DNA of 64,000 nt from a virus (IMGVR_UViG_3300034137_000024:17491-81490), one strand, 5' to 3'. Shown: positions 3,711 through 63,531, numbered from the stretch's first letter. Notes: a model not told the origin generated them from the letters alone. Numbers and translations: made by a program.

Positions 3711-3886
3711 ACACCATGCGCGAGCGGTTCGAGCTCACTTATTGCCGGCAGCAGGGGCACGTCGTCCGATCGCGCCTGCTGTTCCGCCGCAACGCTGATG
3801 GGCGCTACAGCAACCGCGCCCTGGAATTGACGTGGTGCCGCTACAAGCGCGGCCACGTCCAGCAACTCACACAAGGGGCCGCATAG
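3707..3886 (+). CDS. Small hypothetical protein (59 aa), not in ORF track
   Basis: ATGA overlap; MNTMRERFELTYC...TQGAA*. Confidence 0.55.
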   Translation: MNTMRERFELTYCRQQGHVVRSRLLFRRNADGRYSNRALELTWCRYKRGHVQQLTQGAA

Positions 3887-3891
3887 TGCCG

Positions 3892-4290
3892 ATGATTCAG
3901 ATTGCCCGGTACCGGCACAGCAAACAGTTCAAATCGGGCCTGCCGGCGATTGTCGGGCCGCGCTCTTACACCAACGCCCAGCGTCGCTGGCAGGCGCGTA
4001 TTTCGGTCAACGTCCCGACCAGGCGAATCGAGATTCACGACCAGGACTTACAGGCCGTCGACACCGGCGGCGTCTTCACTGTGCCCGACTCGCCCGTCGC
4101 GCTGGTGTACGAGAACAGGCCCGAGCAGAGCATGACCGTGAATATCGGCGTTCTGAGCTACTCGCAGGCCTGCGAGGTCATCGCCGATCAGATGCAGGAG
4201 CTGCTCCGCGAGTGTCCGGACTGGACGGACTTTGAATGGCAGGTCTGGACGGAAAAGGGCAAGGCCCCGAAGGTTCGGAGGGCAGGATGA
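3892..4290 (+). CDS. Hypothetical phage protein
   Basis: In operon; MIQIARYRH... Confidence 0.65.
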   Translation: MIQIARYRHSKQFKSGLPAIVGPRSYTNAQRRWQARISVNVPTRRIEIHDQDLQAVDTGGVFTVPDSPVALVYENRPEQSMTVNIGVLSYSQACEVIADQMQELLRECPDWTDFEWQVWTEKGKAPKVRRAG

Positions 4291-4466
4291 AGATCGAGGA
4301 AGACATCTGGGAGTGGCGCCCCGCTGGCAAGGCCTGTACAGGCAAGCACGTCTGGGTAGTATTCCTGAGCCACCGTATCCGTGAGTGCTGCGACTGTGGC
4401 GCCCGGGAGGATCTGCGGGCCGACTTTGGCATCGGCCCCCGGATCCCCAAGTCTAAAGCAGCATGA
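4287..4466 (+). CDS. Small Cys/His protein (59 aa)
   Basis: ATGA overlap; C..KH.W...RECCDCG. Confidence 0.55.
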   Translation: MKIEEDIWEWRPAGKACTGKHVWVVFLSHRIRECCDCGAREDLRADFGIGPRIPKSKAA

Positions 4467-4475
4467 CCAAGTTCC

Positions 4476-4949
4476 TCAAGGCGATGCCATCGCGGAGTTG
4501 AATGCGTTTTGCACAGCTTGGGAAGCGTATTTATTCGAGTCGTGCCCTATGTCGTTGACTTCCCCAAGGTCGGAAATCCCAACAAACTTTTTCTCGGCAT
4601 CGCCAACGTCGCGTTGGCGCACTGTCCAATGGGCTCTCCCCCGAACATCCCGATCCTCATGCCCACCTTGAGCACATGGTGTACCCCATCCTTGGCGGGT
4701 GTATTTGCCCGAGTAATTTGCATAAATATCTGCATTCTTGCCGCTGATAGTGACATCGACGCTGTTGATGGTGATATCCGCACGAAACGTATCGCCCGGG
4801 CAGCCTAGAAGCGTCTTCTGTCGACCGTCGTATGAGGCTGATCCAGTTCGATGCGTTAATCGATCCTTCACAGAATCCTCTGCGTCGGTCGCAAAGATGG
4901 GCAGGGAAATAGTCGACAGCAGCAGAAGCGCACATGCGAGCGTTTTCAT
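4476..4949 (-). CDS. Secreted protein of unknown function (moron)
   Basis: MKTLACALLLLSTISLPIFA signal peptide; lower GC. Confidence 0.7.
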   Translation of the reverse strand: MKTLACALLLLSTISLPIFATDAEDSVKDRLTHRTGSASYDGRQKTLLGCPGDTFRADITINSVDVTISGKNADIYANYSGKYTRQGWGTPCAQGGHEDRDVRGRAHWTVRQRDVGDAEKKFVGISDLGEVNDIGHDSNKYASQAVQNAFNSAMASP

Positions 4950-5139
4950 GGTGTGAACCTTTTTTATGAGATAGTCCTGCGCATTGCGCGTCCTGGTCAC
5001 ATCTCAATTCGGCTCAGCCTCCCGCACAGCGCCCATCAAGTATTGTCGAGAACTGGGATTTTGCTCCGGATACATGACAAAGCCGGCATCGCTGCCGGCT
5101 CTATTTGTTGCTCAACCGCCCCTCAAGCCCCCCTGTAAG

Positions 5140-8034
5140 TCAGAACGGATCATCCCCATCGGGATCGTCGCCCAGAATCGGCATCAGCGGCACCATCACC
5201 GTCTTGGACTTGGCGCCGTTGAACGAAACGGCCTTGTCGCCTTTGGTCGCTTCTTTCACCCGGGTCAGCTGGTTGCGTAGATCCGTGATCGAGGACAGGT
5301 CGCGTACCAGGGATTTCAGATTGGGCACGCTGGTGCCGAACACCAGCACTTTTCTACCGTGGTCCGCGATGATTCCGTGCCGGCGCAACGTGTCCTCAGC
5401 CGTCACTACGTCCACTTTGTTCTGCCGGTGGATTGGGCTGGTCTCGCGCACCAGTTCATAGATCGTCAGATCCGACAGGCCGGAGCCCATGCGTACCTTG
5501 GCGCTCAGCAGCGCGGTAAGCGCCTTGTCCGCCTCGTCCATATCCGCCTCTTCGCGGTGCTCGGACCAGTCGAAGTCTTTGATCATGGCCTCGGCTTCGG
5601 CTTCGGACGGGACATAGTCCTTTTTCAGGCACCAGCAGCCCGCCAGCAGCGTCCCGAACTGGTCGCCGTCCCGTTGCCGGTCGAAGTGCTTGGCCGCTAC
5701 GCGGCGAAACACCTTCACTGAACTGAGGATGACAGGCAGCAGGTTTAGAATACGGGCCATCAGGCGGCTGGCAATAACCGGGTCCTGATCAATAGAGTTT
5801 AGGTAAGCCTCGAGTTCGTCCCAGTTGTTGTTATCGCCGGCCTTCAAGCGCAGGACCGTCAGGCGGTCAATGTCGGCCTTGGTGGGCAGGTTGGTGTTAA
5901 CGGAGGACAGGCAGAACATCGATCGGATGTCGAAGCGCATGCCGCCACCCGTAGTGGTGCCCTTGTACGTCTTGGCCTGAGTTTCCGATGACGTCTGGCG
6001 GATCAGGCTCATGATGTTTTCCACCCGGTGCCGCTCTTTCTCGTCGTTGGACTCGAATTCGTCAATCATCACCGGCAGGGCGTCGCCGGCCAGCACCTGG
6101 CGCAGACCGGCCTCGGTCGAATTGCCCTGTGCATAGACGTTGGTGCCCCGAGTCAGCGCGCCGCAGAACTTCGCCTGCAGCGTAGTTTTACCGGTACCGG
6201 CGCTGCCAGTTAGCCAGATATGCGGTCGCCAGTTGAGCGCACCGCAGATCGGAGCGAGCATCACCCAGCCCGCCATCAGCGCAGCAGAGCCCGGCATCGT
6301 CCAGCGAGGCATCGTGGCCACGTACACCAAGTGCTCGCCTTCCTCGTTGGTCAGCGGTGATGCATGGGGGTTTGGCAACGCCTTGGCGCGGGTATACACG
6401 TAGCCAGACGTGATCTTGGTCAGGTCGACGCGCTGGCCGTCCACGGTTAGGAACGGCCCGTGGTGGTAGATCGCACGGCTGTCGTCGGTCCAGGCGCCCC
6501 GGCCGCGCACGCGGGTCGGATCGTAGATGCCCATGGAGTGTGCCCGGTGAAAGATCCACTCGGCGGCCATGACGTTGTCGACCTTGGCTGCGCCGCCCGC
6601 GGGGAAGTACTCCTGCCACCAGTTCAACGGCGCGTGCTCGATCAACCCCAGCACATTCATATCCCGGCGCTGCATGACCATTACCTGGCCCTTGGCGTGG
6701 TTGAACAGGTAGTAGTTGCCCCCGTCGTATCCCAGGATGGTGAAATACTTATTCTTGACCAGCTCGTCGTCGTCGTATCCGTCCACGGGGTCCATGCCCC
6801 CAGGCTCGGCCGGAGGCGGCGTGTCGTCGAAGGGTGGCTCATCCTCGGACGTGGCCAGCATTGCCGGGCCGTCTTCGAGGTCAACCTCCATCATCTGCGG
6901 GTGTTCTAGGGTCGCGTCCATCACCTGGTCATTTGCCGCGGCGATTTCGTCGACCAGAACGTGCTCCAGGGCGTCGAGGAAAATGTCGGCTACTTGCTCG
7001 AGGTCGGTTGCCGCGTGGTAGTCGTTAAAGTCGGTTGGCCCTATGCGCTTCACGCCCTTTTCGGTAATGGTGTCGTGCCCATGAGCATGGGTAAACGGCG
7101 GAAAAGCCAGACCGGCTGCTACCTGCTTGGCTGCGATCTTGCCGTAGTGAACGCCTGGGTTTTCAATCGGGGTGAGAGTCCACTGATCGTTATCCGCCGC
7201 GATGATGATAATCGCGTCAGCACGCCGCTCGCGGATGCTCTTGGCGACAGGCGCCAAGTTGCTGATGTCGAAGGTGACCAGCACACAGTGCCCGGTCGCC
7301 ATATGGATACTGGCCCCGGTCGCGTAGCCTTCGCAGATGATGAATACCGGGCGCTCGTTAACCATTTGCGGCTTGCCGATCGCGTGGAAGTTTCCGCGCT
7401 TGGCGCCGTATTTCAGATAGTCTTTTCGGCGTTTGAGAAAGTTCGAGTTGTCGGGGAGGATTGCCTGCAGGCTGTGGATCACGTTCTGCCGATCGCGGAT
7501 CGGTATCAGCAGCGCCCGATCGGACACCACGCTGACCTCGCCCGTCTCCTCGTTCAAGTACTCCCAGCGGCCAACGCGCAGGCCGAAGGCTTTGACGCCC
7601 TTCTCGCCCAGATAGGGATAGTCAGAATCGGTAGGTTCGTCAGTGGCAGCATTCCAGAGTGCGACCGCACGCTCGGCGGCCATGCGGTGACGTTCCTGCT
7701 CAGCGGTGATGCGGCGGCGCTCTTGGTCGGCCATTTTGGCCTTCCATTCCCGGCGCTCATCAAGCGACATCGGGCGGTGCTGGGACTTGTCAGTCCAGGA
7801 AAACTTCTCGTCTGGGTATCGGCGGTTACAGCCGAACATGCCCGCAGGCTTGCTGTCCAGGTGCAGGATGTACCAGCCCGACCGATCACTGGTAGCGTCG
7901 CCGGTGATATGAATTCGGTGGAGGTGGCCGTCGCCCAGGATAGGGTCTTGAGTCTCGAGGCCGTACATGCGCATTTCGGCGCAGAACTGATCTAGAGCGC
8001 GGCCGGGATCGGCTGCACTAGGGGATGTGCTCAT
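5140..8034 (-). CDS. DNA primase-helicase (Toprim plus C-terminal P-loop helicase)
   Basis: ICEGYATG and IAADND Toprim motifs; GSAGTGKTT Walker A, MIDEFE Walker B; SD before ATG 8034. Confidence 0.88.
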   Translation of the reverse strand: MSTSPSAADPGRALDQFCAEMRMYGLETQDPILGDGHLHRIHITGDATSDRSGWYILHLDSKPAGMFGCNRRYPDEKFSWTDKSQHRPMSLDERREWKAKMADQERRRITAEQERHRMAAERAVALWNAATDEPTDSDYPYLGEKGVKAFGLRVGRWEYLNEETGEVSVVSDRALLIPIRDRQNVIHSLQAILPDNSNFLKRRKDYLKYGAKRGNFHAIGKPQMVNERPVFIICEGYATGASIHMATGHCVLVTFDISNLAPVAKSIRERRADAIIIIAADNDQWTLTPIENPGVHYGKIAAKQVAAGLAFPPFTHAHGHDTITEKGVKRIGPTDFNDYHAATDLEQVADIFLDALEHVLVDEIAAANDQVMDATLEHPQMMEVDLEDGPAMLATSEDEPPFDDTPPPAEPGGMDPVDGYDDDELVKNKYFTILGYDGGNYYLFNHAKGQVMVMQRRDMNVLGLIEHAPLNWWQEYFPAGGAAKVDNVMAAEWIFHRAHSMGIYDPTRVRGRGAWTDDSRAIYHHGPFLTVDGQRVDLTKITSGYVYTRAKALPNPHASPLTNEEGEHLVYVATMPRWTMPGSAALMAGWVMLAPICGALNWRPHIWLTGSAGTGKTTLQAKFCGALTRGTNVYAQGNSTEAGLRQVLAGDALPVMIDEFESNDEKERHRVENIMSLIRQTSSETQAKTYKGTTTGGGMRFDIRSMFCLSSVNTNLPTKADIDRLTVLRLKAGDNNNWDELEAYLNSIDQDPVIASRLMARILNLLPVILSSVKVFRRVAAKHFDRQRDGDQFGTLLAGCWCLKKDYVPSEAEAEAMIKDFDWSEHREEADMDEADKALTALLSAKVRMGSGLSDLTIYELVRETSPIHRQNKVDVVTAEDTLRRHGIIADHGRKVLVFGTSVPNLKSLVRDLSSITDLRNQLTRVKEATKGDKAVSFNGAKSKTVMVPLMPILGDDPDGDDPF

Positions 8035-26250: not shown

Positions 26251-26266
26251 AGCATGGCGTCACGAC
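26251..26266 (-). promoter_or_regulatory. Late-type promoter GTCGTGAC-GC-CATGCT (leaderless)
   Basis: ATG 7 nt after the hexamer. Confidence 0.75.
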
Positions 26267-44239: not shown

Positions 44240-45382
44240 TCAGTTACCGGACAGCACTTTTTGCAGATACGCCCCAAATTCGGGGTCGTCACCCTCTAAA
44301 ATCTCCATCACAGCGACCCAGAACCCTCGACAGTTCGGGTGCGCCAGACCAGCAGGCAGGTGCCAAAGTTCGGCCTCTGTGCGCGGTACCAGTTCGTCAC
44401 CCACGCGCTTGCGCGGCGCCGCCGATCGGCCAATGTTGTTTTTCCCGGGCCAAACCATGGTCTCGCCGTCCTTGTCCGGAGCGTCGGCCGCCACAACAGT
44501 GGCCACCCGGCCATGAATTCGCTTGCAGAACGCGCAAGCGGTCTCGTACTGCTCGACGCGCTTAACCTTGGTGCCTGGCTTGAGGCTGGCAATGAAACCT
44601 TGGGTCTGGCATTCGCCGGCCTCGGTGACTGCGATTCGGCGCCAGTCGCGATTAAGGCTGGCGAAGTCGTCGAAAAGCTCGGTTTCAAGCGACGGTAACT
44701 GCCCGGTGGTTTCCGCCAGTTCCAGCTGCTGCATCACGGTCTGGCGCAACTGGTGGCGGGCCTTGTCGGTCAGGGCGCGCACGTTTTCACCGGCGCGCAC
44801 CTCGGCAAACTCCATGGCCGACTTTTGCTGCTTGGATAGATCGAACTGACTGGCAGCCGCCTCCGGCGTCGACGGCAGTGCAGCCAGGATCTTGTCAGCG
44901 TTCTGGGGCGTTACCAGTTTGGCGTCCAGATTTGCCTGGACCTTGCCCATCAGCACCGCCCGAGTCGCCAGCCACTGGGCCTCGGTCTTGAGCTCCTCCG
45001 CTGGCAAGTAGCGCTGCACGACGTAATCGACCGCCATCATGTGGTCCTTGACTCCCCACTTACCCGGCGGCAGCGCTTCCAGGTACAGCTTGACCAGAGA
45101 AAGCTCGTCGTCCGTCCAGCGCACCATCATCCCAGGCGCAGTGGAGGGTTTCGCGTCAGGGTTGTGGTGCTTGCCTTGCTGCCAGGCGGAAAGCTGCGTC
45201 TTGACGTGCTCCAGGCGATCGAGACCGCGCTTTGTGAACAGTTCGATTAGGCGCCGGATGAGCACGGACTCATGGGCGTCCCAAATACCGGCCCCCCGAT
45301 CACCACGGGCGGCGGACTTGTAGATGAACTCCAAGGCGTCATCGGTTGCCAGGGGGCTCAGTAGTTGCAGGTCTATGTACAT
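44240..45382 (-). CDS. Head morphogenesis protein (MuF/SPP1 gp7-like)
   Basis: RDWRRIAVTE, ACAFC, HPNCRG.W; next to the portal. Confidence 0.8.
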   Translation of the reverse strand: MYIDLQLLSPLATDDALEFIYKSAARGDRGAGIWDAHESVLIRRLIELFTKRGLDRLEHVKTQLSAWQQGKHHNPDAKPSTAPGMMVRWTDDELSLVKLYLEALPPGKWGVKDHMMAVDYVVQRYLPAEELKTEAQWLATRAVLMGKVQANLDAKLVTPQNADKILAALPSTPEAAASQFDLSKQQKSAMEFAEVRAGENVRALTDKARHQLRQTVMQQLELAETTGQLPSLETELFDDFASLNRDWRRIAVTEAGECQTQGFIASLKPGTKVKRVEQYETACAFCKRIHGRVATVVAADAPDKDGETMVWPGKNNIGRSAAPRKRVGDELVPRTEAELWHLPAGLAHPNCRGFWVAVMEILEGDDPEFGAYLQKVLSGN

Positions 45383-48864: not shown

Positions 48865-49122
48865 ATGAACGAAAAAAGCATGGCGCGTTTTTTAGGCTTG
48901 GCCCCAAAAGCACAACCTACCGCCGTTACACGCGGGCTCGTTGTTGTTATGTCAGTACGCAAGGGTGGTGTCGGCCCGATTCTGCGATACACCCACCCTA
49001 CCAACACCATCAGCCGCCTCGAGGCGCAAATCGAGGCTCAGCAGGCAGCCAGAAGGGAAGGCCTGACGTTCTGGACCCTCCTCGACATCTCTCCACCTGA
49101 TCAAGTTGCCGTCGCGATGTAA
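48865..49122 (+). CDS. Hypothetical protein
   Basis: SD AGGAAAGGA before MNEKSMARF; AT-rich upstream region. Confidence 0.6.
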   Translation: MNEKSMARFLGLAPKAQPTAVTRGLVVVMSVRKGGVGPILRYTHPTNTISRLEAQIEAQQAARREGLTFWTLLDISPPDQVAVAM

Positions 49123-51710
49123 GCCCAACAACCGGGATCTTTTGGCCTCACCGTTGCTTGTAACTCGCGGCAACGGTTGGTAACTGGGTCCCGGTTACTG
49201 CAAGTTCCGCACGTATTCGCCAACGCATACTCGATCTGAGCAACCACAGTTGAAGCTTGGATAGGCAACGCCGCCCTGACCCCCTCCGCAGCAACTCCCT
49301 GCTGATTCGCCGACTCCGGCAAGATAAATGTACTGGTCCCGTGTGCGCGTGAATACGCGACGTCACAGAGCATGTTTGCATAGCTGGTATGAGGGTCAAT
49401 GCCGATCTTGACCACGCGGCGGGTGTATTTCTTCTCTTCCTCATCCTTCTCGGCAATCAGCGCGGTGCGGGTGAAGTGCAAAAACGCCACTTCACGACAC
49501 GCTGCCTTGACCACCATTTCGCCTTTCTCGAAATAGTCCTGCACCAGGGCATCAGGATCCGGGAACAGACACTGGGTCAACTGAATACGCGACATCGCCG
49601 ACTGCATGCACTTGTACTGGTCCAGGCGCACGGTATAGCGAGTCCGGCCATCTTCGGTGGTCCGGCGTTCGGAGGCGTTCAGGCGCGCTGTATCGCCCCA
49701 AATCATCATCTGACCGTCCATGTTGCCGTAGCCGGCCAAGAACACACGCCCCTCATGGCGCTGCGCGAAACGCTGGGCGTCGTTGTAGTTTGGTAGGGCC
49801 TCCACCACGCAGCACTGCACGTTGAAGGCATCCATAAGCTCGGAGGTCCGCGCAAATGGGTCGTTGTTGAAAATGTACTCCAGGTGGACCACAGCCTGAC
49901 GTCCGTCCGGCAAGCGCTTTTTGATGATGGCAACCACGTAGTTACCACCCTGGTCGAGCCCCATGAACGTCTCGCGGTCCGACTTACGCCACAGCAGACC
50001 GTAAGCCATGCCCACGCGGGCACATTCGTTGAGCATCGCCAGATTGACCGGAGTCTGCGACGGGTCGGTGTAGGGCTTGCCGAGCTTCCGGTTATAGAAG
50101 TTCTTCATATCGTCGGCTTCGCGGTACGCCTCGATAATCTCTCGCGGTGAGATCGTCGGCGACAGGAACTGCGGGAAGTGAACCGAGACAATTGCGGCCT
50201 CGGGTACCTTTGCCAGCCATTCACCGGCCTGGGGATCGTCGATCCAGCCCGAACAGACGTGGCAGCGGTACCGATATTCGCCATACGTGGTGGGTATGCC
50301 GTCGCGTTGAACGCGCTGCGGTGCTTCTGGGTCAAAACCAATGCATTGAGGGAAGTGCTCGTCCAGCACCTGACCGGTTTCACAGTGCGGGCAGCGCGTA
50401 TGGAACTGGTGCTGGGTGCCCTTCTTGTACCACCAGTGAATATCGGAATCGGGCCAGTTGGCCGTCGAACCCATGAGCGTGTAACGGATCCGTGAAGCGG
50501 ACAGACGCTCGCGGGTTTTTTCCATATCCGCGATGGTCATTTCCTGCACTTCGTCGAACGACAGAACGTCCATCGGGAACGATTCGGTCGCCGTCTTACC
50601 TGTGGTCCACAGGAAGTGAAACCGAGAAGAACCGAGGTTTCGGATAAGGACGTTACCCTCCCCGCCCTTGGTGCCGCTGGCATTCTTGTCGACCATCATC
50701 CGATACACCTCGGGAATGGTCTTGATGATCGGCATAAAGCGGTGCGTGGACTTGCCGCTGGCCAGCATCTGCGACGGCATGAACATGCCAACCTTGGCCG
50801 GCGCGAATTTGATCGACAGATAGATCATCGCCAGGCATTCGAGCACCGAGAAACCTACCTGGGTGCATTTCATCACCACATGCGTCGTCAGATAGGCCTG
50901 TTTCGGGTCCGATGGGATCAAGCTGTAAATGAACCGCATCGCAGGCCGATCGGAGAGTGTGAACCGTACCCCGTCGACCTTGAGCCCGTCCTTTTCCAGG
51001 CGTTCGCACCACTCCACAAACGACTCGTTTAGCCCGATAAAACGCTGCAAGGGGTCGAGTTCAAAGGCCAACTCCAGGAATTCGGCGTTAAAACGCTGCC
51101 GCCACTCGAATTCCGTGATGCTTTCGGCCTCCTCCGCGCTTTTTCGCGGAAAAAATGGGTTCTCGTAGGCGCTATGGTGCGAGCAACGCCAAGACGGGTC
51201 CTCCAGACCACGCTCGTACAGGCGATAGAAATCGTTTCGCTTGCCGTAGGCATTGGAAAGGAACCAGACCTGACCCTTGTGCGTACGCAGCGACTCGCTA
51301 AGCAGGTCCTCCCACAGATGCAGGAAGTCCGGCACCCGGCAAACGTCGTCGACCACCACCAGGCCGAACTGGTCCAGGGTGTTGATCTTCTCGTCAAGGG
51401 AATAGAAATAGATGCTGTTGCCGTTCTGCAGCTCGACCTGGTGACCGCTGACACGACGGCGTACAAACGAGTCGATCGCACGGATCACGGTGCGTTTTAC
51501 CGCAAGCATTTCCTCACGGGTCGCCGAAAACCAAGCAACAGGCGCCATGCCGGCGATCGCGCCATGCGGAGACGCAACCAGCGCCTCGATGCCGAGTGTT
51601 GTTTTGCCACCCTGCTCGCCTATGCACACGGCATTAAACCGAGCAGCGTTAGACAGGATGCGTTCTTGAACAGGGAAAGGTGCTGGGAGGCGTATTTTTA
51701 ATGGGCTCAT
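49101..51710 (-). CDS. Terminase large subunit (gpA-like) with an extra degenerate N-terminal terminase ATPase domain
   Basis: Domain 1: Q..I...ARF, GEQGGKT, VVVDD; domain 2: MKCTQVGFS, FDEVQEM, GST; CPHC zinc finger; nuclease GLDQG. Confidence 0.9.
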   Translation of the reverse strand: MSPLKIRLPAPFPVQERILSNAARFNAVCIGEQGGKTTLGIEALVASPHGAIAGMAPVAWFSATREEMLAVKRTVIRAIDSFVRRRVSGHQVELQNGNSIYFYSLDEKINTLDQFGLVVVDDVCRVPDFLHLWEDLLSESLRTHKGQVWFLSNAYGKRNDFYRLYERGLEDPSWRCSHHSAYENPFFPRKSAEEAESITEFEWRQRFNAEFLELAFELDPLQRFIGLNESFVEWCERLEKDGLKVDGVRFTLSDRPAMRFIYSLIPSDPKQAYLTTHVVMKCTQVGFSVLECLAMIYLSIKFAPAKVGMFMPSQMLASGKSTHRFMPIIKTIPEVYRMMVDKNASGTKGGEGNVLIRNLGSSRFHFLWTTGKTATESFPMDVLSFDEVQEMTIADMEKTRERLSASRIRYTLMGSTANWPDSDIHWWYKKGTQHQFHTRCPHCETGQVLDEHFPQCIGFDPEAPQRVQRDGIPTTYGEYRYRCHVCSGWIDDPQAGEWLAKVPEAAIVSVHFPQFLSPTISPREIIEAYREADDMKNFYNRKLGKPYTDPSQTPVNLAMLNECARVGMAYGLLWRKSDRETFMGLDQGGNYVVAIIKKRLPDGRQAVVHLEYIFNNDPFARTSELMDAFNVQCCVVEALPNYNDAQRFAQRHEGRVFLAGYGNMDGQMMIWGDTARLNASERRTTEDGRTRYTVRLDQYKCMQSAMSRIQLTQCLFPDPDALVQDYFEKGEMVVKAACREVAFLHFTRTALIAEKDEEEKKYTRRVVKIGIDPHTSYANMLCDVAYSRAHGTSTFILPESANQQGVAAEGVRAALPIQASTVVAQIEYALANTCGTCSNRDPVTNRCRELQATVRPKDPGCWAYIATAT

Positions 51711-53650: not shown

Positions 53651-54841
53651 CTATGAGGAATCACTGCCAGGATCAAAGTCCCCTAAAGGCAAGGGCACCC
53701 CCGGTGGGGCAGGTACCTGATGTACACCATAAGGAACATCGGGAGCAGCGACGGCGGAGCGCCCCTTAAACGCGATCACAGCGGCGAATTTCTCGACCTC
53801 TTCGATGATGTGGCGGTGAGCAGCCACGGTCTGCCGTGCAAGGCCCGCCATGCGCGCTATAGCGACGCTGGTGAGCTCTTGGCCCCGCTGCTGCAATAGA
53901 CGGCAAGCGGCCCTCACCTTCGATTCTGTGGCTTGATGGCGCAGGTCGTGGGTGCGCTTGGCTGACATGCGCTGACGCTCGGCCAGTGGCAGGCTGGAAT
54001 CCAGCGCCATGGCGCCACGGTGGACGCGAGAACTGCCGTAATACTTGCTCCACGTCCAGTTCGCCACGGACTTGACCGTCGCACGCAGCGAGGACTCAGG
54101 CAGGTTCGTAGACATGCCCCACTTGGCGAAACCGTTGTTGTTGTGCGCGAACGCACGCAGCAGCGCCAGAAACGAGGAAAAACACCCCGCTTCGCGCTGC
54201 CGGTTAACGATGCTGTATGCGTAATAGCGCAGCTGCTCGAACATCAAGCAGTGCCGGGAGTGACTGACCTCGACCAGAGAGCGGCGGACTGCCCACGGCT
54301 TCGTCGTCTCAAGTTCGACGTATTCAGCCAGGTCGCCGAGATCGTAGACGTGGTCGTGCAGATCCATCGTCGCCCACCACGGATGGCCGGGCGTCTTGGC
54401 GACAGGGCCGCTGTGGTATTCGAGATCCGCGTCCAGCACCAGGGCAAACGCCTGATACACGGCTTTCATGTAGTTGATGGGCGCGTGGCGAGCGTTGTCC
54501 GACGTGCAGACGGGGGCAATGGCGTAGTAGAGGTGGCAATGGCCGTTGTTGCGGTTGCGCACGATCATGTTGGGCGCAGGCAGGCCCTTCTCTTCCCATA
54601 TCAGGGAGTTCGCATGATCGAGGTCGAAGACCAGCCACGACGTCATCCCCGGGCGGTTAACCTGCATATAGGGGTAGTTGACGGCGTACTCCCGCGGACG
54701 AATCCGGGTTGCCGTCTTGTCATCGCTGCAGCGGGCAAGATACGAGGCTTCCTCAAGAACACGGCTCAGGGCCGATCCTTTCAGGTAGTAACGCTCGCCC
54801 GCAGGCTGGACCTTTTCGAGTTTTTTCGGCTTTACCGACAT
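53651..54841 (-). CDS. repA: Plasmid replicase RepA (ColE2/pPT23A type)
   Basis: YMQVNRPG..SWLVFDLDH, LP.PN..VRNR..GH.HL.YAI, KTPGHP.W, C-terminal HTH. Confidence 0.92.
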   Translation of the reverse strand: MSVKPKKLEKVQPAGERYYLKGSALSRVLEEASYLARCSDDKTATRIRPREYAVNYPYMQVNRPGMTSWLVFDLDHANSLIWEEKGLPAPNMIVRNRNNGHCHLYYAIAPVCTSDNARHAPINYMKAVYQAFALVLDADLEYHSGPVAKTPGHPWWATMDLHDHVYDLGDLAEYVELETTKPWAVRRSLVEVSHSRHCLMFEQLRYYAYSIVNRQREAGCFSSFLALLRAFAHNNNGFAKWGMSTNLPESSLRATVKSVANWTWSKYYGSSRVHRGAMALDSSLPLAERQRMSAKRTHDLRHQATESKVRAACRLLQQRGQELTSVAIARMAGLARQTVAAHRHIIEEVEKFAAVIAFKGRSAVAAPDVPYGVHQVPAPPGVPLPLGDFDPGSDSS

Positions 54842-54845
54842 ACCC

Positions 54846-54864
54846 TGCCGCCAAAACGGCGGCA
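54846..54864 (-). promoter_or_regulatory. Hairpin in the repA leader
   Basis: TGCCGCC-aaaac-GGCGGCA, 4 nt before the ATG. Confidence 0.5.
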
Positions 54865-55012
54865 AGCAGACGGACGGACGCAAAAAATAATGCGCCCACA
54901 CTTGCACACGGATGCGCAGGTATCCATAATCTCACCTAGCTGTTACGTGAGCACTACAACGGTTTTCCGCCAAGAAATCTGACGTTGAGTGCTCATTTTT
55001 TTTGCCCCGAGT

Positions 55013-56080: not shown

Positions 56081-56428
56081 TTAAAGTGGCAAGCCACGCT
56101 GACGGGGGCTTGCGTACGGCGGCACCGGCTGCAGGTCGGCCATGATGTGCCAGACGCGGCCGTAAGCGGTGGCCAGCTTCTTGTCGCCAACAGAGTTTTT
56201 GAAGTTGGGGTAGTTGATCGCCATAGCGAGGTCGGCCAGCTTGGCACCTACTACCGCCTTGGGCAGAACCGCACGGAACTGGTAGTCGTTACCGATGGTT
56301 TCCCGCACGTCAGCGTCAGGGAAAACATTGCGGATGTCTTTCGGGCGGCGGCTGCGCACCAGGAGCTCGTCCGGGCCACAGTCCTTGTTCACGATCGAAA
56401 GGAAAGCGTTGTTGGTGCAGATCCACAT
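56081..56428 (-). CDS. Conserved hypothetical protein
   Basis: MWI..N.AFLSIV, LLVR.R, DY.FRA, Y.NFK.SV; SD AGGAG; operator-like box upstream. Confidence 0.8.
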   Translation of the reverse strand: MWICTNNAFLSIVNKDCGPDELLVRSRRPKDIRNVFPDADVRETIGNDYQFRAVLPKAVVGAKLADLAMAINYPNFKNSVGDKKLATAYGRVWHIMADLQPVPPYASPRQRGLPL

Positions 56429-56499: not shown

Positions 56500-57306
56500 T
56501 CAGTCAAATAAATCAGAATGCTCATTGCCCCACTTCGACTTTTGCGTCGGTGCCTTCTTCGGTGGTTCCGGCGCCGGGCCAGCGCCGATCACTTCGGCGA
56601 TACCGTGATCCGACCACATATTGAGGTGGTCATAGAGTTTGTCCTTTGGAACAAGGTGGACCGCCTGCGACTCCCAGCCCATTGCTGTGGGGGTTCCGCC
56701 GATCCGCTGCGCACGGTAGATGCGCGCTTTCGACATGGTGCGCTCGAAGTCGCCGAGAAAACCGGTAATCCGAACCTTCAAACCGCTCTCTTCAAACGCC
56801 TCCTTGACCGCGTTGGCCTGCAGTGAAAGGCCCTCCTCGGCCGTGCCTTTCGGGAAGCTGGCCTCGTAGCCGCCGAACTGGTTGGACGGCGCAATGAGCC
56901 AGACACGACCGTCCGGCTCCTCGATCACCACACCACTGGCGGCGTACTTCTTGCTCCCCTGGACGAATGGGGGCTCGTCCAGGTCATCGTCAACGCCGTC
57001 GACATAGTCCCAGCCGTCCGCCGTTACAGGATGGTCCTTCCATTCGCGGAACGGGATGCCATTCAGGCCTAACGGCACGTCACCGTCAGGCACGAACGTG
57101 GCGACAGCCTGGGGGTTATGCCATGTGCTCGCCGCGCTCGCATTGGAAGGTGCGTGCAACTTGACCGGCGCGCCCTTGTCATCGAACTGCGGGTGGAAGT
57201 GGTGAGCCGGCGCCGCAGCAGACTGCACCTTGGTGTTGTACGGCTTCACGTAGGTGCCGTCTGCACGGGCGTGGCCTTTGACGTAGGCCTTGGCGAGATC
57301 GGTCAT
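56500..57306 (-). CDS. Nudix hydrolase, probably capsid-packaged
   Basis: Nudix box PKGTAEEGLSLQANAVKEAFEESGL; N-terminal DLAKA-YVKGHARADGTYVKPY. Confidence 0.88.
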   Translation of the reverse strand: MTDLAKAYVKGHARADGTYVKPYNTKVQSAAAPAHHFHPQFDDKGAPVKLHAPSNASAASTWHNPQAVATFVPDGDVPLGLNGIPFREWKDHPVTADGWDYVDGVDDDLDEPPFVQGSKKYAASGVVIEEPDGRVWLIAPSNQFGGYEASFPKGTAEEGLSLQANAVKEAFEESGLKVRITGFLGDFERTMSKARIYRAQRIGGTPTAMGWESQAVHLVPKDKLYDHLNMWSDHGIAEVIGAGPAPEPPKKAPTQKSKWGNEHSDLFD

Positions 57307-57788
57307 CGTTGTGCCCCAGGCTTGCGACCCAGCAGCACGTCAACAGCATCGTCTACGACTTCAGTCAGGCCGGCCTGCACCTCTTCCTCAGTCATCGCCC
57401 CCTCTTCGAGGTTGATCGAGGCCTCCAGCGCCTGCAGCGCTAGGAAATTGAAATAGGCCTCGGCCGGCGTCGCGTAGTCGGCGACATCCGGCGTCGTTAC
57501 GCGCAGGTAAATGCCCAGGCGGTGCGGGCTGTTCCAAGGCTGGGCGGCATAGCTGCTGTTTTCACCCATGACGATCTGTGCGTTTCGGGCGCACATAGCC
57601 GCGATCCGGGCCGATGAGGCATCGCCATCGCCGTCCTGGTGGAACTTGGCGCGCTCGGTGAACACTGCGCCCAGGAACTCGCGCACCAGGTGGTTTATCA
57701 CCTGGGGGTCGCCCAGGTAGTTATTGGTTTCGATGCCGTCTACGGCGGTCTGGAGGCCGTCGCGGCGGTTTGCTTCAAGATTGTCCAT
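57303..57788 (-). CDS. Acidic hypothetical protein (candidate immunity/partner protein)
   Basis: Overlaps both the kinase-ART gene and the Nudix gene. Confidence 0.65.
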   Translation of the reverse strand: MDNLEANRRDGLQTAVDGIETNNYLGDPQVINHLVREFLGAVFTERAKFHQDGDGDASSARIAAMCARNAQIVMGENSSYAAQPWNSPHRLGIYLRVTTPDVADYATPAEAYFNFLALQALEASINLEEGAMTEEEVQAGLTEVVDDAVDVLLGRKPGAQR

Positions 57789-60700
57789 GTTTCCCCTTGT
57801 TCGCTTCCAGTTCGGAAACGTAGGTCTCGTCGGGTGGCAGCATCAGCACGTCGAGTTCAATTCGTTCCTTACCTTTGTGCGGGTCGAAGACCTTCTGGCA
57901 GGACATAATAACGAACCGCTGCCCGGGCAAGGTTGTGATCTCTTTTTCACTGCTGAAAGACCCCGAACCAAAGCTATCAACGGCCTTTGCCCCCTTCGCG
58001 TAACGAATCCGGATCCGGTCAGCCCCGAAACCCGAGGTGCCATTAGGGACGTACGAGCAGCACATCGAGCCGGGGTTTTGAAACACCGTGCCAGGCTGAG
58101 CCTTGAGCATCTGCTGCTTCATATCCCCCGAGAAGTTGATCCACTTATAAATCTCGAAGCCTTCGGGTTTTTCGGTAGCGAACGAATAAGCATCGAGGAC
58201 CATGCCGGTCGCGTCCCGCCCATCGCTTGTGACCATTAAACCATCACGGAAATTGTCGTTGTAGGACCCTGACGACTGAATCCCATTAATAAATCGCTTT
58301 ACCAGGCGATTCGACGCCAGGCCCGCATAAGCCAGCTTTGCAGACGACCGCATGGCCTCCGTTAACGACGGTGTGCCGACAGGGCTGCTTTGGAAGGCCA
58401 AGGTCTTGCTACCGCCTGCAGGAAGCAGCGCGACCGCCGGTTTGGTGTGGCCCAGGGCGATCCAGAACGCCAAGCGGGAGTTGGCGTGTACCTTGTTGAT
58501 GGTGACGCCGTATTTCGCGCTCTGGAAGGCGTCTGAAACCTTCTTGAGGCCGACAGCCATCACCGATTTAAACGCTTTCAGGCGCTCCGGCGGGTGCGCA
58601 ATGTAGTTCAGCGTCGACACCAAGTCCGACCAATACGCCTTTACATGCTGCGACGGGTGCTGCTCGATATGCTGGCTGCCCGCCGCCTCCCCTGTTTCCT
58701 TGTCCACGGCGTCAAAGTGATAGTCCTTCAAGGCAATCAAGTTGCCTTTGGACGCGAACGCCAATAGATCCTGCTCGGCCTTGAGGTTGGTCTCGTTGAC
58801 GTGCGGTTTCGACGACAGGCCGTTACCGGCACCTTTCCAGTTGTGGAAGTCGTGCGGTTGCGGCAGGTCGCTTGCCTTTACGTCGAGCTTGGTCGGGTCT
58901 GGCTTCGGCTTGGCCTTGGATGCTGCGGCCTTTTTGACAGCCTTGGGGAACTGTTCGAGCAAATTCTCTTTGCGAGCAATCAGCGTCTCCACCAGGTGCG
59001 CTTTTTTCGCCAGGTCACCGGGGCCGTGCTTCATCACCAGGTCGTAAATCTCGTCGTCAGACACCGCGACGACCTTAGCCACCGATGCGGTAATGTCGGC
59101 CTTCGTCAGCTTGCCGAAGACCACCGAGGCCGCATGGTTGATTTTCGGGTCGCGCATGGTGTCGATTTCGGTCACTTGGTTTCCGAAAGCCTTCTTACCG
59201 CCCATGGCGCGATATTCAAGGGCGCCGCCGGCGTCCACGCGCACGGCCTTGCCATTGGCATCCAGCTGCAGGTTGTCGTATTCCAGGCCAACCGCGTCCC
59301 AGTTACCCAACCAGGCGTCGACAGCGAAACCAGCGCTGGTACCGTCTGCCTTTGCCATTTCAGCCGGCGGTGCCTTGGTCACCTCCTCCCATTTGCTGGC
59401 AATACCGATCTGCCCGTTATGGGTAACCAACTTGCAGTTCTGTCCAGTTACCCCTGCTGCAGCGTACAGCTGGGCCGCCAGAACTTCGGACTTGGCCATG
59501 TCCTCGTCCTTGGGAAATTTGCAGTACCAAGCCACGCCATCGGGGTCGACATACTTGCCGCCGGGATTCGAGCCGAGCTGACCGCCGACCTTCGACCAGG
59601 CATCCATCGATGGCGGCTTATCCCCCGCTGGAGCAGCTGGCGCCGTTGGTGCAGCAGCCTTGCCCTTGCCCTTCGGCACAGGACCTACGGCAGCCTTTAG
59701 CGCCTCAACATAGTGATACAGGGCGACGTGCGACCCCTCGGGCATGCTGAGGAAGCCGGTAATTTTTACCGATCCGCCCCCCGGCCTCGGCAAGGTGACA
59801 ATCGTCTTACCTGATTTCTTCATCACCTTTGTGGTGCCGACAAGCGCAGCTGGGCCTTCGGCCTTGACCTTTTGCAGCAGCGTGTGGATGCAGCCAGCGA
59901 CCACCTCGGGCTTTTTGAAATCCGTCAGATGCGGCAACGGCACCTGGGCGACCGCATACATGGCCGCTTCGTGGGGATTATCGACGCCAGGAACCTTGTG
60001 CCAATGGCCGTCTTTGAAAACGAGCATTCCATCGGCGCCCTGTTTCATTTCACCCTCAAGCGGCCCGGCAGGATCCGGTGAAGCTGATGCAGGTTTTTCC
60101 GGTGCAGGGGTGGCGGCAGGGGCAGCAGGGGCAGCGGCCGGGCTTTCTTTCAACGCGGCGATTGCGGCGGCGGCGATCTTCGCCTGCTTCTTTCCGTACG
60201 TGTTGCTGCCAAACTTCATCGCCTCGAGGCCGGCCACGTCGCCGGCGTAAGCCAACGCCTTGATCTTCTCGAGCTTGCCGTTATGGCTCTTGGCGTTGGT
60301 GTTGCTCTCGGGCAGTAGCAGGCCATCCCAAGGCATTTTGTCGAGGTTTACGTGAGAGGGTGACTGGCCGGAACTGGCGGTAACCTTCTCCGGTTCCACA
60401 GCGTTCGGGGCGGGCTCCGGCGCCTTGGCGACAGGCGCCGGGGAGGGCGCAAGCGCCGGAGGTGGGGCGAACTTTTGCGGGTCGAGCTCGGAAAGGGCCT
60501 GCTGCGCGTAGACCTGCGCAGCCGGGGAGTACGTCATGCCATCCACTTCTTTGCCGCTGGCAATGTCATGGATCGAATCGGTCTGGAGCTCCGCGTAGTA
60601 ATGGTTGATGGCGTCCTTTTCGGCCTCCATGGCGTCGCCCGGATCCACGTCGCCGAAGTGCTTGGCGGCCGGGTTCATCGCCGCAACCTTGGCCGGATCG

Positions 60701-61908
60701 TGCGGCAGGTGATCCTCATGACCCCACGCGGCGTAAATCTGGTGGATTGCCGCCTGATGCAGGGCAATCAGCTTTTTCGAGTTCGCCGTCTTCCCCGCCC
60801 AGGTCTGCCCCTTGAGCTTGTGTCCGTCTGCCTTGAGGTCTTCCAGGGATACAGCATCCTGATCATGCGCCAAGTCCAGTATCTGCTGGGCTACCTTCTC
60901 GTAATGAGATTTGACCCCGGTGGTGGTTTTCCCCTCGGCGAAGTCGGGCATTTTCAGGGCGCCGGCAGCCGCAGAACTTTCGGTAACTGCCGGTGGTTCC
61001 CCCGCGTTACCGCTGGAGTTAGCCGCGGATATCTTTGAGGCGACCAAAGCGGCGTGGTGAACCGGAGTGCCTTCGGCGTAGGTGTTGAGGAAGTAGTTAA
61101 ACGCCTCTTTATCACCGTCCTCGATCGCTTCGTCCAGAGCGGCCTGTATCTGGGGCGTCATGTGGCCAACGCTGGTCCCGCCGGTTTTCGACTCGCGGGC
61201 TGAATCGGACGCGGCCACGTCTGCAGGCTTAGCCTCGGCGCCGGGCATTGATGCCAACTGACCGGCCTTCGCCTGTTTCACCGCGTCGAAGTCAGCAGTG
61301 CTGGCGAACTTGGAGAGGTAAATCTGCCCGTACATTTGGGCTGCCGACACGCTGGCCGAGTTCTTGATCTTGTCCAGGAGTTCCAGCGCTTCCGGGTTAG
61401 AACTGGCGGTAACTGCGGGCGGTTCCTTCTGGTTGCCGGCAGGGGAGGCCTTTACAGCGGCGTGTTCGCCAGGCTTTTGCCCGGCCGATACCTGGTGCTG
61501 GCTGCCCATTTTACCCAAGAGGAAGTTAGCCACTGCTGCCTGTTTCTTGCCGTGGGTATTCACGCCGTAGCCGTGACCAAGGATGGCCGTGGCGTCGCCG
61601 TTTTCGCCATGGGCGAGCAGCTTGGGCAAATGAACGTCGTTGAAGGCTGCCATTTCCTTGTTGGTGGCGGCCTTGTCCGTGGGGTACTTGAGCTTGTCGA
61701 TCTGTTCGGCCGACAAGGATATAGGGCTGTGCTTACCACCCGCCTCGGGGTGCGCTGCTTGGGGTGCGCCTTTGGGTGCCGGTTTCTCCTGCTTGATAGC
61801 GTGCCATCTACCCTGCAATAGGTAATAGCCCGCTTGGTGGGCAATTTTTGACTTGATCAGCAACAGAACTCGGGGAGCCGCTGCCGTGGGGGCGGTAGGT
61901 ATATTCAT
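57775..61908 (-). CDS. Polyvalent protein: linker-rich N-terminus, HipA/PI3K-like kinase, C-terminal ADP-ribosyltransferase
   Basis: GSNPGG..WYCK, SEVLA, DAWLGNWD, RVDAG; IYKW, SMCCS, SEKE, LPGQRF. Confidence 0.8.
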   Translation of the reverse strand: MNIPTAPTAAAPRVLLLIKSKIAHQAGYYLLQGRWHAIKQEKPAPKGAPQAAHPEAGGKHSPISLSAEQIDKLKYPTDKAATNKEMAAFNDVHLPKLLAHGENGDATAILGHGYGVNTHGKKQAAVANFLLGKMGSQHQVSAGQKPGEHAAVKASPAGNQKEPPAVTASSNPEALELLDKIKNSASVSAAQMYGQIYLSKFASTADFDAVKQAKAGQLASMPGAEAKPADVAASDSARESKTGGTSVGHMTPQIQAALDEAIEDGDKEAFNYFLNTYAEGTPVHHAALVASKISAANSSGNAGEPPAVTESSAAAGALKMPDFAEGKTTTGVKSHYEKVAQQILDLAHDQDAVSLEDLKADGHKLKGQTWAGKTANSKKLIALHQAAIHQIYAAWGHEDHLPHDPAKVAAMNPAAKHFGDVDPGDAMEAEKDAINHYYAELQTDSIHDIASGKEVDGMTYSPAAQVYAQQALSELDPQKFAPPPALAPSPAPVAKAPEPAPNAVEPEKVTASSGQSPSHVNLDKMPWDGLLLPESNTNAKSHNGKLEKIKALAYAGDVAGLEAMKFGSNTYGKKQAKIAAAAIAALKESPAAAPAAPAATPAPEKPASASPDPAGPLEGEMKQGADGMLVFKDGHWHKVPGVDNPHEAAMYAVAQVPLPHLTDFKKPEVVAGCIHTLLQKVKAEGPAALVGTTKVMKKSGKTIVTLPRPGGGSVKITGFLSMPEGSHVALYHYVEALKAAVGPVPKGKGKAAAPTAPAAPAGDKPPSMDAWSKVGGQLGSNPGGKYVDPDGVAWYCKFPKDEDMAKSEVLAAQLYAAAGVTGQNCKLVTHNGQIGIASKWEEVTKAPPAEMAKADGTSAGFAVDAWLGNWDAVGLEYDNLQLDANGKAVRVDAGGALEYRAMGGKKAFGNQVTEIDTMRDPKINHAASVVFGKLTKADITASVAKVVAVSDDEIYDLVMKHGPGDLAKKAHLVETLIARKENLLEQFPKAVKKAAASKAKPKPDPTKLDVKASDLPQPHDFHNWKGAGNGLSSKPHVNETNLKAEQDLLAFASKGNLIALKDYHFDAVDKETGEAAGSQHIEQHPSQHVKAYWSDLVSTLNYIAHPPERLKAFKSVMAVGLKKVSDAFQSAKYGVTINKVHANSRLAFWIALGHTKPAVALLPAGGSKTLAFQSSPVGTPSLTEAMRSSAKLAYAGLASNRLVKRFINGIQSSGSYNDNFRDGLMVTSDGRDATGMVLDAYSFATEKPEGFEIYKWINFSGDMKQQMLKAQPGTVFQNPGSMCCSYVPNGTSGFGADRIRIRYAKGAKAVDSFGSGSFSSEKEITTLPGQRFVIMSCQKVFDPHKGKERIELDVLMLPPDETYVSELEANKGKHGQS

Positions 61909-61914
61909 GACGCG

Positions 61915-61930
61915 ATTCTTGCGTCACGAC
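61915..61930 (-). promoter_or_regulatory. Late-type promoter GTCGTGAC-GC-AAGAAT (leaderless)
   Basis: ATG 6 nt after the hexamer. Confidence 0.78.
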
Positions 61931-62356: not shown

Positions 62357-62381
62357 AAAAACCCCGCCAAGGCGGCGGGGT
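62357..62381 (-). terminator. Rho-independent terminator
   Basis: ACCCCGCC-aaggc-GGCGGGGT with A-run on + strand. Confidence 0.7.
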
Positions 62382-63099: not shown

Positions 63100-63411
63100 T
63101 TAAGCGGCTTCGCGACCCATGACCGGATCAAGCTCGATCAAAGCAAGCAGCGCGTTGCGATGGCGGTGTGTCAGGTCGCGGAAACGGGCGATCAATTCGC
63201 GCTCACCGGCCGAAAGCTCGGCGGCGTTGACGTGGGTGCCGGCGCGGCCTTCGTAAGCCAAGGTCCGCTCGATGCGAGCAATGATTTCAGAATTCATGCT
63301 GCGATGGTTTTCCCCCGCAACTTCGGAGATGCGATCGCGCATCCCATTCGGTAAGCGGACGACGAACTTATCGGCACTGCGGCTATTTGTCATTTGGTAT
63401 TGCTGAGACAT
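63100..63411 (-). CDS. amrZ: AmrZ (AlgZ)-like Arc/RHH transcription regulator
   Basis: SRSADKFVVRLP.GMR..I.EVA...HRSMNSEIIAR.E and C-terminal ELS..ERELI.RFR.LTHR..NAL.ALI. Confidence 0.88.
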   Translation of the reverse strand: MSQQYQMTNSRSADKFVVRLPNGMRDRISEVAGENHRSMNSEIIARIERTLAYEGRAGTHVNAAELSAGERELIARFRDLTHRHRNALLALIELDPVMGREAA

Positions 63412-63531
63412 TTTCTCTTTCCTTTCCGTTACGGCCGAAGCCGCGTATTGCTGTGGCGTACATTGGTAGTTTACGGGACCTAAGCGGCGTCTAGCCAGCA
63501 CCTATCGGGGGGAACACCGGGGCTGGTTGGT

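Follow-up and report, generated by a model that had tools for sequence, protein, structure and literature searches.

We analysed a 64-kb stretch of viral DNA (IMGVR_UViG_3300034137_000024:17491-81490; hereafter the window, with all positions counted from its first nucleotide) and found on its minus strand a compact module of three overlapping genes. The first gene encodes a 1377-aa polyvalent protein that carries both an atypical protein-kinase-like domain and an ADP-ribosyltransferase (ART) domain; the second encodes a small acidic protein and the third a Nudix hydrolase. We favour, with modest confidence, a reading in which the module is an effector set that is made late, packed inside the head of the phage and then injected: the kinase and an arginine-type ART would modify proteins of the host on entry, the Nudix enzyme would process a linked nucleoside diphosphate compound (NDP-X), and the acidic protein would restrain the effector.

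A three-gene operon in a biocrust myovirus

The window derives from one 84,651-bp viral contig with a CheckV completeness estimate of 92%. The source virus is a myovirus encoding a tail sheath, major head protein, portal, large terminase, head maturation protease, primase and helicase, and nearly all of its structural, terminase, primase and helicase genes lie on the minus strand. The DNA of the window was matched solely in the source biocrust metagenome. A megablast search against phages gave 0 matches, and no RNA runs matching the stretch were found.

An initial annotation, made from the sequence before the present analysis, had described a three-gene operon with overlapping genes at 56500-61930, and our open reading frame (ORF) calls agree with it. 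Gene 1 (57775-61908, minus strand) encodes the polyvalent protein (P0001), gene 2 (57303-57788, minus strand) the acidic orphan protein of 161 aa (P0002), and gene 3 (56500-57306, minus strand) the Nudix hydrolase of 268 aa (P0003). Gene 1 overlaps gene 2 by 14 nt, gene 2 overlaps gene 3 by 4 nt, and the ATG start of gene 1 is backed by homologues that align from residue 1.

A kinase fold and an ADP-ribosyltransferase fold in one polypeptide

When searched as a whole, the 1377-aa protein gave nothing meaningful in Pfam, NCBIfam, PHROGs or the PDB sequences, and no HipA hit was found in it with Pfam or NCBIfam. We aligned 120 representatives to each half of its conserved core (alignments A1 and A2) and folded both halves. 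The sequence motifs that the initial annotation had quoted (GSNPGG, WYCK, DAWLGNWD and RVDAG in the kinase; Lys for Arg, CCS and EKE in the ART; and the VT(A/E)SS linkers) are all present.

In the first half of the core, residues 764-999 (58912-59619, minus strand) had been called a HipA/PI3K-like kinase, and the fold was verified in an AF2 model of residues 755-1100 (pLDDT 95.1). Its closest structural match is Helicobacter pylori CtkA (Foldseek E 1e-6; VIA Z 16.4 over 212 residues, root-mean-square deviation (rmsd) 3.5). Other VIA Z scores were 13.6 for CotH, 11.5-11.8 for two bacterial Ser/Thr kinases, 11.6 for LepB, 11.4-11.5 for HipA and HipT (11.5 for HipA), and 10.0 for actin-fragmin kinase. 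Only the fold search worked here; a search of the kinase profile against PDB sequences found nothing. The structural matches to HipA begin at HipA residue ~125-150, that is, without the HipA N-terminal subdomain.

The kinase motifs stand in the expected order, with GSNPGG at position 779, WYCK at 794, DAWLGNWD at 864 and RVDAGG at 890. Eleven positions (G779, G783, K797, E808, D864, N869, D871, N879, D892, G894 and K906) are invariant in 121 sequences. Together with the fold, invariant K797, E808, D864, N869 and D892 give the kinase-like core with Lys, catalytic Asp/Asn and metal-binding Asp that characterises the HipA family, the catalytic roles being assigned by motif order and not by residue-level superposition. 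Since the motif residues are invariant, an active enzyme fits the data.

In the second half, the domain at residues 1157-1362 (57823-58440, minus strand) is of the C3/VIP2/iota type. The initial annotation had proposed an ART of the R-S-E class with atypical residues, and structure comparison of an AF2 model of residues 1090-1377 (pLDDT 94.6) bears this out: Foldseek matched VIP2 with an E of 3e-8, and VIA gave Z scores of 13.0 with C3 (C3lim) and 12.1 with VIP2, over 177-184 residues at an rmsd of 3.0-3.3. The ART family profile also matched VIP2 in the PDB (E 3.5e-6), with all three motifs aligned. The best structural matches among reviewed proteins are mostly arginine-specific transferases.

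Tested against the R-S-E class, the domain has the fold and the ExE motif, and it has Lys (K1255, in YKW 1254-1256) at the site of the strand-1 Arg that binds nicotinamide adenine dinucleotide (NAD). This site is Arg in 80 and Lys in 40 of the 121 sequences; because Lys occurs in 40 of 121 beside an otherwise intact site, we regard it as a trait of a clade. At the S-T-S position the phage protein has C-C-S (1283-1285), which aligns with the STS of VIP2; across the family the first residue is Cys in 115 of 121, the middle one Thr in 59 or Cys in 42, and the last Ser in all 121. S1285 and both glutamates of EKE 1321-1323 (E1321 and E1323) are invariant in 121/121, and EKE aligns with the EKE of VIP2. 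Both folds and their conserved motif residues are shown by these comparisons. The domain would be a mono-ADP-ribosyltransferase of the C3/VIP2 type, for which the ExE motif predicts arginine as the target.

The Nudix hydrolase and the nature of the substrates

The Nudix call for gene 3 was upheld by Pfam, where PF00293 (NUDIX) scored 40.3 bits against a cut-off of 21.1 (E 4e-10). The family profile matched the Aquifex Ap4A hydrolase 3i7u in the PDB across the whole domain (E 1e-12), followed by Ndx1 and RppH. The Nudix box runs from G154 to L176 (G-x5-L-x7-K-E-A-F-E-E-S-G-L; 56779-56847, minus strand) and departs from the reference GX5EX7REUXEEXGU at the first E, which is L, and at the R, which is K. 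These departures belong to the family: K occurs 33 times and R 6 times, the first Glu is replaced by a hydrophobic residue, and the E, EE and G are invariant. T4 NudE provides a phage Nudix precedent.

The matches of the three enzymes bear on what they act upon. Instead of proteins, nucleic acids or nucleotides could be the targets. In that case the ART would act on bases of DNA or RNA or, like T4 ModB, attach NAD-capped RNA, the Nudix enzyme would process caps or Np4A, and the kinase fold would phosphorylate a small molecule or a nucleic-acid end. The closest solved Nudix relatives (Ap4A hydrolase, Ndx1 and RppH) agree with such a role, as do the nucleic-acid-sensing WGR domain in many homologues, the likeness of the kinase fold to lipid and small-molecule kinases (LepB, PI4K, APH and NahK), and direct Nudix-kinase fusions that lack an ART. 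In structure, however, the kinase is best matched by protein kinases (CtkA, CotH, Ser/Thr kinases of bacteria, HipA and HipT) and the ART by transferases acting on protein arginine, asparagine or actin, and the ExE is invariant. We consider nucleic-acid or nucleotide targets improbable and favour host proteins as the substrates of both writers.

Conservation, linkage and fusions

Residues 740-1377 match 4,570 cluster representatives in metagenomes at E<=1e-3, of which 1,137 reach <=1e-30. These relatives differ in their N-terminal halves, and their total length ranges from 500 to 2200 aa. Among the N-terminal halves of 39 long homologues we found WGR in 23, ART-PolyVal in 4 and InPase in 3. 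Phage polyvalent proteins were defined by Iyer, Burroughs, Anand, de Souza and Aravind in 2017 (PMC5512222), and since homologues of gene 1 carry the hallmark domains ART-PolyVal and InPase of that work, gene 1 belongs to this group. The polyvalent nature proposed in the initial annotation is thus well founded, with a kinase and an ART in one 1377-aa ORF and shuffled architectures in the relatives.

We retrieved 48 IMG/VR loci with the ART profile, and the order ART, gene 2, Nudix is kept in 48/48. The same trio is found in Pseudomonas phage Jeremy, Aeromonas phage ST4 and Escherichia coli phage ECML-606-1, and the hosts of eight cultured relatives include Pseudomonas, Aeromonas, Yersinia, E. 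coli, Enterobacter and Morganella. In ECML-606-1 (L051, OL631484.1, 988-9097) a 2253-aa polyvalent protein with a kinase and a canonical R/STS/ExE ART is followed by homologues of gene 2 and the Nudix gene, all three genes being annotated as 'hypothetical protein'.

Several genomes have joined these parts in one reading frame. One locus (L004, ORF 3001-7197) encodes Nudix, kinase and ART domains in a single ORF of ~1400 aa; three others (L006, L024 and L032) do likewise, and these triple-fusion ORFs are still trailed by an acidic gene-2 homologue. Another locus (L023, ORF 1043-2485) encodes a 480-aa Nudix-kinase fusion, and the kinase also turns up in BFVD entries that bear the name Nudix or ART. 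Because synteny alone could reflect common descent, the fusions are the better support for a functional unit. The linkage, across a large phage lineage, and the fusions are direct observations; the three-gene set of the initial annotation proves to be conserved, and the fusions strengthen the functional link between its members.

In one related locus (L055:6097-6726, minus strand) the module is adjoined by a gene whose 209-aa product contains the C-terminal domain of RNA polymerase alpha (PF03118). This domain is the target modified by T4 Alt and ModA. No such gene was found in the phage genome itself, and we therefore draw no link to it.

A promoter-like motif common to the module and the head genes

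Directly before the ATG of gene 1 (61909-61930, minus strand) lies a promoter-like motif composed of GTCGTGAC, the -10-like octamer GCAAGAAT and a 6-nt spacer. The same layout, GTCGTGAC-N8-N6-ATG with a spacing of 14-15 nt, precedes six minus-strand genes: the polyvalent gene (motif at 61930), those of the large terminase (TerL; 51732), portal (47372) and head protease (42546), and two others (35328 for the gene at 35306, and 26266 for that at 26255). The 8-nt element follows the pattern nAnnnT. The core 9-mer of the motif occurs 36 times where 22 are expected, and 0 of 100 shuffles reach 36.

None of the six genes has a Shine-Dalgarno sequence and the motif stands directly before the ATG, which argues for leaderless late mRNAs. 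As the terminase, portal and protease genes have this motif at the same spacing, gene 1 is very probably regulated together with the virion genes, its transcript being leaderless or nearly so; this co-regulation is read from the shared motif. The operon would accordingly be expressed late. As a fact of sequence, the motif-driven, leaderless operon of overlapping genes described in the initial annotation stands.

A scan with the sigma-70 consensus found no promoter upstream of the operon. An earlier candidate for the motif, GACGCAAGAAT, showed no enrichment, and we dropped it in favour of GTCGTGAC. The upstream unit is closed by an intrinsic-terminator-like hairpin with a T-run (62361-62381, minus strand). 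Further copies of the motif (45637, 41772, 11465 and 48107+) face stretches without an ORF.

N-terminal tags and the indirect case for packaging

The gene 1 protein carries an N-terminal tag at residues 13-45 (LLLIKS..AHQAGYYLLQGRWHAIK..KPAPKG; 61774-61872, minus strand), and the Nudix protein one at residues 4-24 (LAKAYVKGHARADGTYVKPY; 57235-57297, minus strand), which is kept across the Nudix family. Proteins of that family begin with (L)LFLKAHVKGYTRKDGTYVKPH, and the same tag opens 36/241 polyvalent homologues; the variant LLLIKS..AHQAGYYLLNGRWHK, as in P0001, opens 146/241. Within the phage genome the tags are found in P0001 and P0003 only, gene 2 being without one. A comparison of both variants by hhalign (54%, E 1e-4) does no more than suggest that they are homologous.

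A short hairpin motif within the N-terminal half of the gene 1 protein repeats the tag (GPxEGxxKQGADGMLVFKDGHWHKV, residues 621-645; 59974-60048, minus strand), and many homologues have internal copies. Because the hairpin also occurs internally, the tag need not be a loading signal.

The remaining evidence on packaging is contextual. Gene 1 has its promoter-like motif in common with head genes. In one locus (L056) the polyvalent gene comes directly after the portal gene, with gene 2 and the Nudix gene behind it, and a 1201-aa BFVD entry, a portal protein by its entry name ("Phage portal protein, HK97"), matches the kinase model with an E of 2e-16. The phage itself encodes a head maturation protease. 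On contextual grounds, Iyer et al. (2022) made the case that myoviruses often package ARTs and Nudix enzymes, and the Nudix enzymes of phages are among the proteins predicted to be packaged (PMC9503650).

The enzymes might instead remain unpackaged and act late within the producing cell on host or phage proteins. There they would, for instance, block abortive infection, put an end to host functions or adjust assembly and lysis, with the Nudix enzyme trimming the products and gene 2 acting as a regulator. The late promoter motif before gene 1 would suit such a role, direct evidence of packaging was found nowhere, and T4 ModA and ModB are phage ARTs that act without packaging (PMC5512222). Yet the module directly follows the portal gene in relatives, a portal-named entry carries the kinase, and injected effectors would be expected to have such a size, such modular linkers and, in homologues, the hallmark polyvalent domains; moreover, takeover enzymes made only late would come too late for the same infection. 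We find this explanation rather unlikely, and prefer loading into the head and injection.

Gene 2, a conserved acidic partner

The gene 2 protein (161 aa, isoelectric point (pI) 4.45) is helical. No match was found for it in Pfam (41 members included), in the comparison of its profile with the PDB or in the ESM Atlas, and it showed no helix-turn-helix and no similarity to HipS. A homologue directly follows the stop codon of the ART in all 48 IMG/VR loci, often with a 4-nt overlap; 10 of these homologues were found by hidden Markov model (HMM) only. A small gene directly 3' of a toxin-like domain is what is expected of a toxin-immunity pair. The relatives have the same ART family (in two subtypes) and the same gene-2 family throughout, and no swapping of cassettes was seen. 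Any role for gene 2 is a guess, as it is based on position, charge and translational coupling.

A solitary homologue of gene 2 occurs in Accumulibacter-like contigs (L052-L054, gene 7001-7534; profile E 8e-24; 51 member sequences). Its context is chromosomal (hisG/hisD ... ssb, uvrA), with no adjoining ART, kinase or Nudix gene. Judging from this sequence context, the solitary copy may be an orphan, 'immunity'-like copy.

Upstream of the module lies a gene for an Arc-like regulator (63100-63501, minus strand), and between the module and the terminase a gene with plasmid-type Replicase (PF03090) and PriCT_1 domains (53651-54907, minus strand). The relative Touem01 is reported to be predicted temperate and to have a ParA-like gene (PMC11256456). 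The lineage may live as a plasmid-prophage.

Against this background the module could also be a toxin-antitoxin-like addiction or exclusion system of a plasmid-like prophage. In such a system gene 2 would supply the antitoxin to a kinase-ART toxin, with the effect of stabilising the element or killing cells that are superinfected. Kinases of the HipA type and ARTs are well-known toxins, a small acidic gene directly follows the toxin domain, and the plasmid-type replication gene, the Arc-like regulator, the ParA-bearing temperate relative and the chromosomal gene-2 homologue in Accumulibacter can all be cited in favour. We nonetheless judge it very improbable. The promoter motif is that of the structural genes, and the module sits in the head and packaging region; the protein spans 1377-2250 aa with many modules that are not toxins; a HipA N-domain and a HipB-like DNA-binding partner are both missing; and several carriers were isolated as plaque-forming phages.

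Architecture of the N-terminal half and neighbouring features

The initial annotation had noted a duplicated segment in the gene 1 protein. This proved to be a real repeated module of ~60 aa, which is helical, with the consensus LPxSNxNAxSHNK..KIKA.A.AGDVAGL..K.G.NTYGKKQ and 310 domain matches across 173/240 homologues. The protein has four copies, all on the minus strand: residues ~60-140 (61489-61731) and 525-600 (60109-60336), both in alignment A4; a divergent copy at residues 318-395 (60724-60957; alignment A6, hhalign to A4 92.7%, E 4e-7); and one before the ART, at residues ~1030-1100 (58609-58821), which appears as a small alpha/beta unit in the model.

The linker EPPAVTASS and its further copies (61396-61431, 60970-61005 and 60367-60402, minus strand) stand before successive modules in the form N..EP(P/E)(A/K)VT(A/E)SS, the VT(A/E)SS part occurring three times, at residues 166, 308 and 509. 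We considered PPAVT(A/E)SS as conserved protease sites and rejected this as a feature of the family, the repeats being private to the gene 1 protein: at least two copies were found in 0/240 homologues. The triple linker could be a recent internal duplication or a processing site specific to this phage.

Segments 176-300 and 400-490 are essentially private to the phage as well. Feature searches in the Atlas with residues 176-300 and 40-160 found nothing, and neither the repeat module nor region 612-765 matched the PDB or Pfam.

Next to the Nudix gene lies a further gene that had been overlooked in the initial annotation (56081-56428, minus strand). It encodes a basic protein of 115 aa (pI 9.5) with the pattern MWIC.NNAFLSIV...LLVRARR..DI..VFP, for which no Pfam or PDB match was found. 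The gene adjoins the Nudix gene in 40/51 related loci; it sits between gene 2 and the Nudix gene in two of them (L008 and L009), and on the opposite strand in three (L043, L044 and L046). Its position would suit either a fourth member of the module or a core gene that is only syntenic.

Two separate claims of the initial annotation concern other genes. The doubled ATPase region that it had seen in the terminase (49101-51710, minus strand; 869 aa) agrees with matches to two different large-terminase PHROG families in tandem, at residues 10-224 and 229-794. Its MuF call at 44240-45382 found no support in Pfam or PHROG.

Discussion

We propose the following course of events. The polyvalent protein and the Nudix enzyme would be made together with the head proteins, and their related N-terminal tags would lead to the loading of both into the capsid and to their injection with the DNA. 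In the new host, the kinase would phosphorylate host proteins and the ART would ADP-ribosylate them on arginine, all ahead of phage gene expression. An NDP-X compound tied to this chemistry would be cleaved by the Nudix enzyme; candidates are the ADP-ribose adduct itself (leaving phosphoribose), free signals derived from ADP-ribose, Ap4A and NAD caps. The acidic gene-2 protein, which has no tag, would remain behind in the producing cell; until packaging it would hold the ART, or the effector as a whole, in a silent or loading-competent state. While the folds, motif residues, co-regulation, linkage and fusions come from the analysis itself, we infer the loading and injection, the targets and what gene 2 and the Nudix enzyme do.

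Several points weigh against this proposal. Gene 2 has no recognisable fold, and its role was guessed from where it lies, its charge and its translational coupling. Classic toxin-immunity cassettes are polymorphic, but this ART is conserved, and with Lys in place of the NAD-binding Arg its activity may be lower or different. Vertical inheritance may partly explain the gene order: of nine cultured phages with a related terminase, eight carry the module, Bordetella phage PHB04 being the one without it. The hairpin that resembles the tags is also found internally, and the homology of the tag variants is just suggestive (54%). A search of the literature on the relatives found no virion proteomics, RNA data or biochemistry, and no description of the kinase-ART-Nudix set.

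A more specific and speculative version of the proposal gives each part a precise task, and we hold it to be improbable in this full form. The tag (consensus LLxLKA..GYxRxDGxxVxPH / GYYLLNGRWHK) would be a portable capsid-loading signal for the kinase-ART effector and the Nudix enzyme. After injection, the ART and the Nudix enzyme would work in series, cutting ADP-ribosyl-arginine to phosphoribosyl-arginine, a mark beyond the reach of host macrodomain or ARH erasers, while the kinase would hit a second site simultaneously. The untagged acidic protein would be an ART inhibitor of a new fold, and solitary chromosomal copies, for example in Accumulibacter, would protect bacteria from the injected enzyme.

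If the proposal is true, an entire and very abundant lineage of myoviruses of ~90 kb brings in a writer of two enzymes, for phosphorylation and arginine ADP-ribosylation, together with a nucleotide hydrolase at the entry of its DNA, and the T4 Alt paradigm is extended to a kinase-ART fusion. The gene-2 protein could then give a new family of ART inhibitors, and the tag would be a candidate capsid-loading signal. Because E. coli phage ECML-606-1 carries the complete set, the model can be tested directly in a standard laboratory host.

The initial annotation had regarded the combination as apparently uncharacterised and as the best candidate for a new system, a virion-delivered writer/guard/eraser set for anti-defence or takeover. 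This interpretation is partly supported: its domain calls, the polyvalent nature, the late co-regulation and the three genes as a set are upheld, and the packaging and injection, a 'guard' role of the acidic protein, an 'eraser' role of the Nudix enzyme and an anti-defence purpose are conjectural. We found no experimental characterisation of it; but some homologues are already labelled ADP-ribosyltransferase in GenBank and the general concept is published (PMC5512222, PMC9503650), so that this is not a new kind of system. What appears to be new, as far as our searches reach, is the fixed core of a CtkA-like kinase and a C3/VIP2-like ART, the obligate acidic partner, the tagged Nudix enzyme and the fusions.

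Comparison with known systems

With CtkA, HipA/HipT and CotH the phage kinase has a kinase-like fold in common (Z 16.4 for CtkA, 13.6 for CotH and 11.5 for HipA) as well as the order of motifs: a Gly-rich loop, a Lys, a Glu, a D..N catalytic loop and a DxG metal site. Its sequence identity to them is just 10-17%, it lacks the N-domain of HipA and any HipB or HipS partner, and it sits inside a 1377-aa phage protein instead.

The ART has the fold of the C3 exoenzymes, VIP2, iota/CDTa/C2-I, Vis and Tre1 over ~175-185 residues (Z 11-13), and its STS-like serine and ExE align with those of these R-S-E toxins. It differs in having K for R, as does a third of its family, and C-(T/C)-S for S-T-S. It also has no delivery component of the kind found in the binary toxins and is set in a bacteriophage.

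The Nudix enzyme has the fold of the Ap4A hydrolase and RppH-type Nudix enzymes, and its box keeps their catalytic E and EE. The usual Glu/Arg pair of the box is absent (L and K instead), the enzyme has a conserved 120-aa N-terminal extension whose tag is common with some polyvalent homologues, and its gene is tightly linked, sometimes fused, to the kinase-ART protein.

T4 Alt is a head-packaged, injected R-S-E ADP-ribosyltransferase. It is likewise a phage ART with ExE that is made with the virion proteins, and it serves as our model for early modification of the host. It was not among the top 30 Swiss-Prot structural matches of the ART described here, which differs in being fused to a kinase, in its K at the R site and in having its own partner genes.

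Phage P1 with its Dar system, in which DarB and its partners are packaged in the head, is alike in being a myovirus of ~90 kb that has replication genes of the plasmid type and combines very large multi-enzyme proteins with small helper genes. The enzymes differ, DarB being a methylase/helicase, and no sequence relation was found.

Polymorphic toxin-immunity pairs such as Tre1-Tri1, and MuF-fused phage toxins, likewise have a small, translationally coupled gene after a C-terminal toxin-like domain. In the phage, unlike in the polymorphic pairs, the C-terminal domain is conserved and not swapped, and gene 2 is without a known immunity fold.

With the phage polyvalent proteins, finally, gene 1 has in common a giant polypeptide of unrelated enzymes, a variable architecture, hallmark domains in its homologues and a predicted delivery with the DNA. 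What sets it apart is the fixed C-terminal core of an ART of the C3/VIP2 type and a CtkA/HipA-like kinase, accompanied by two obligate partner genes.

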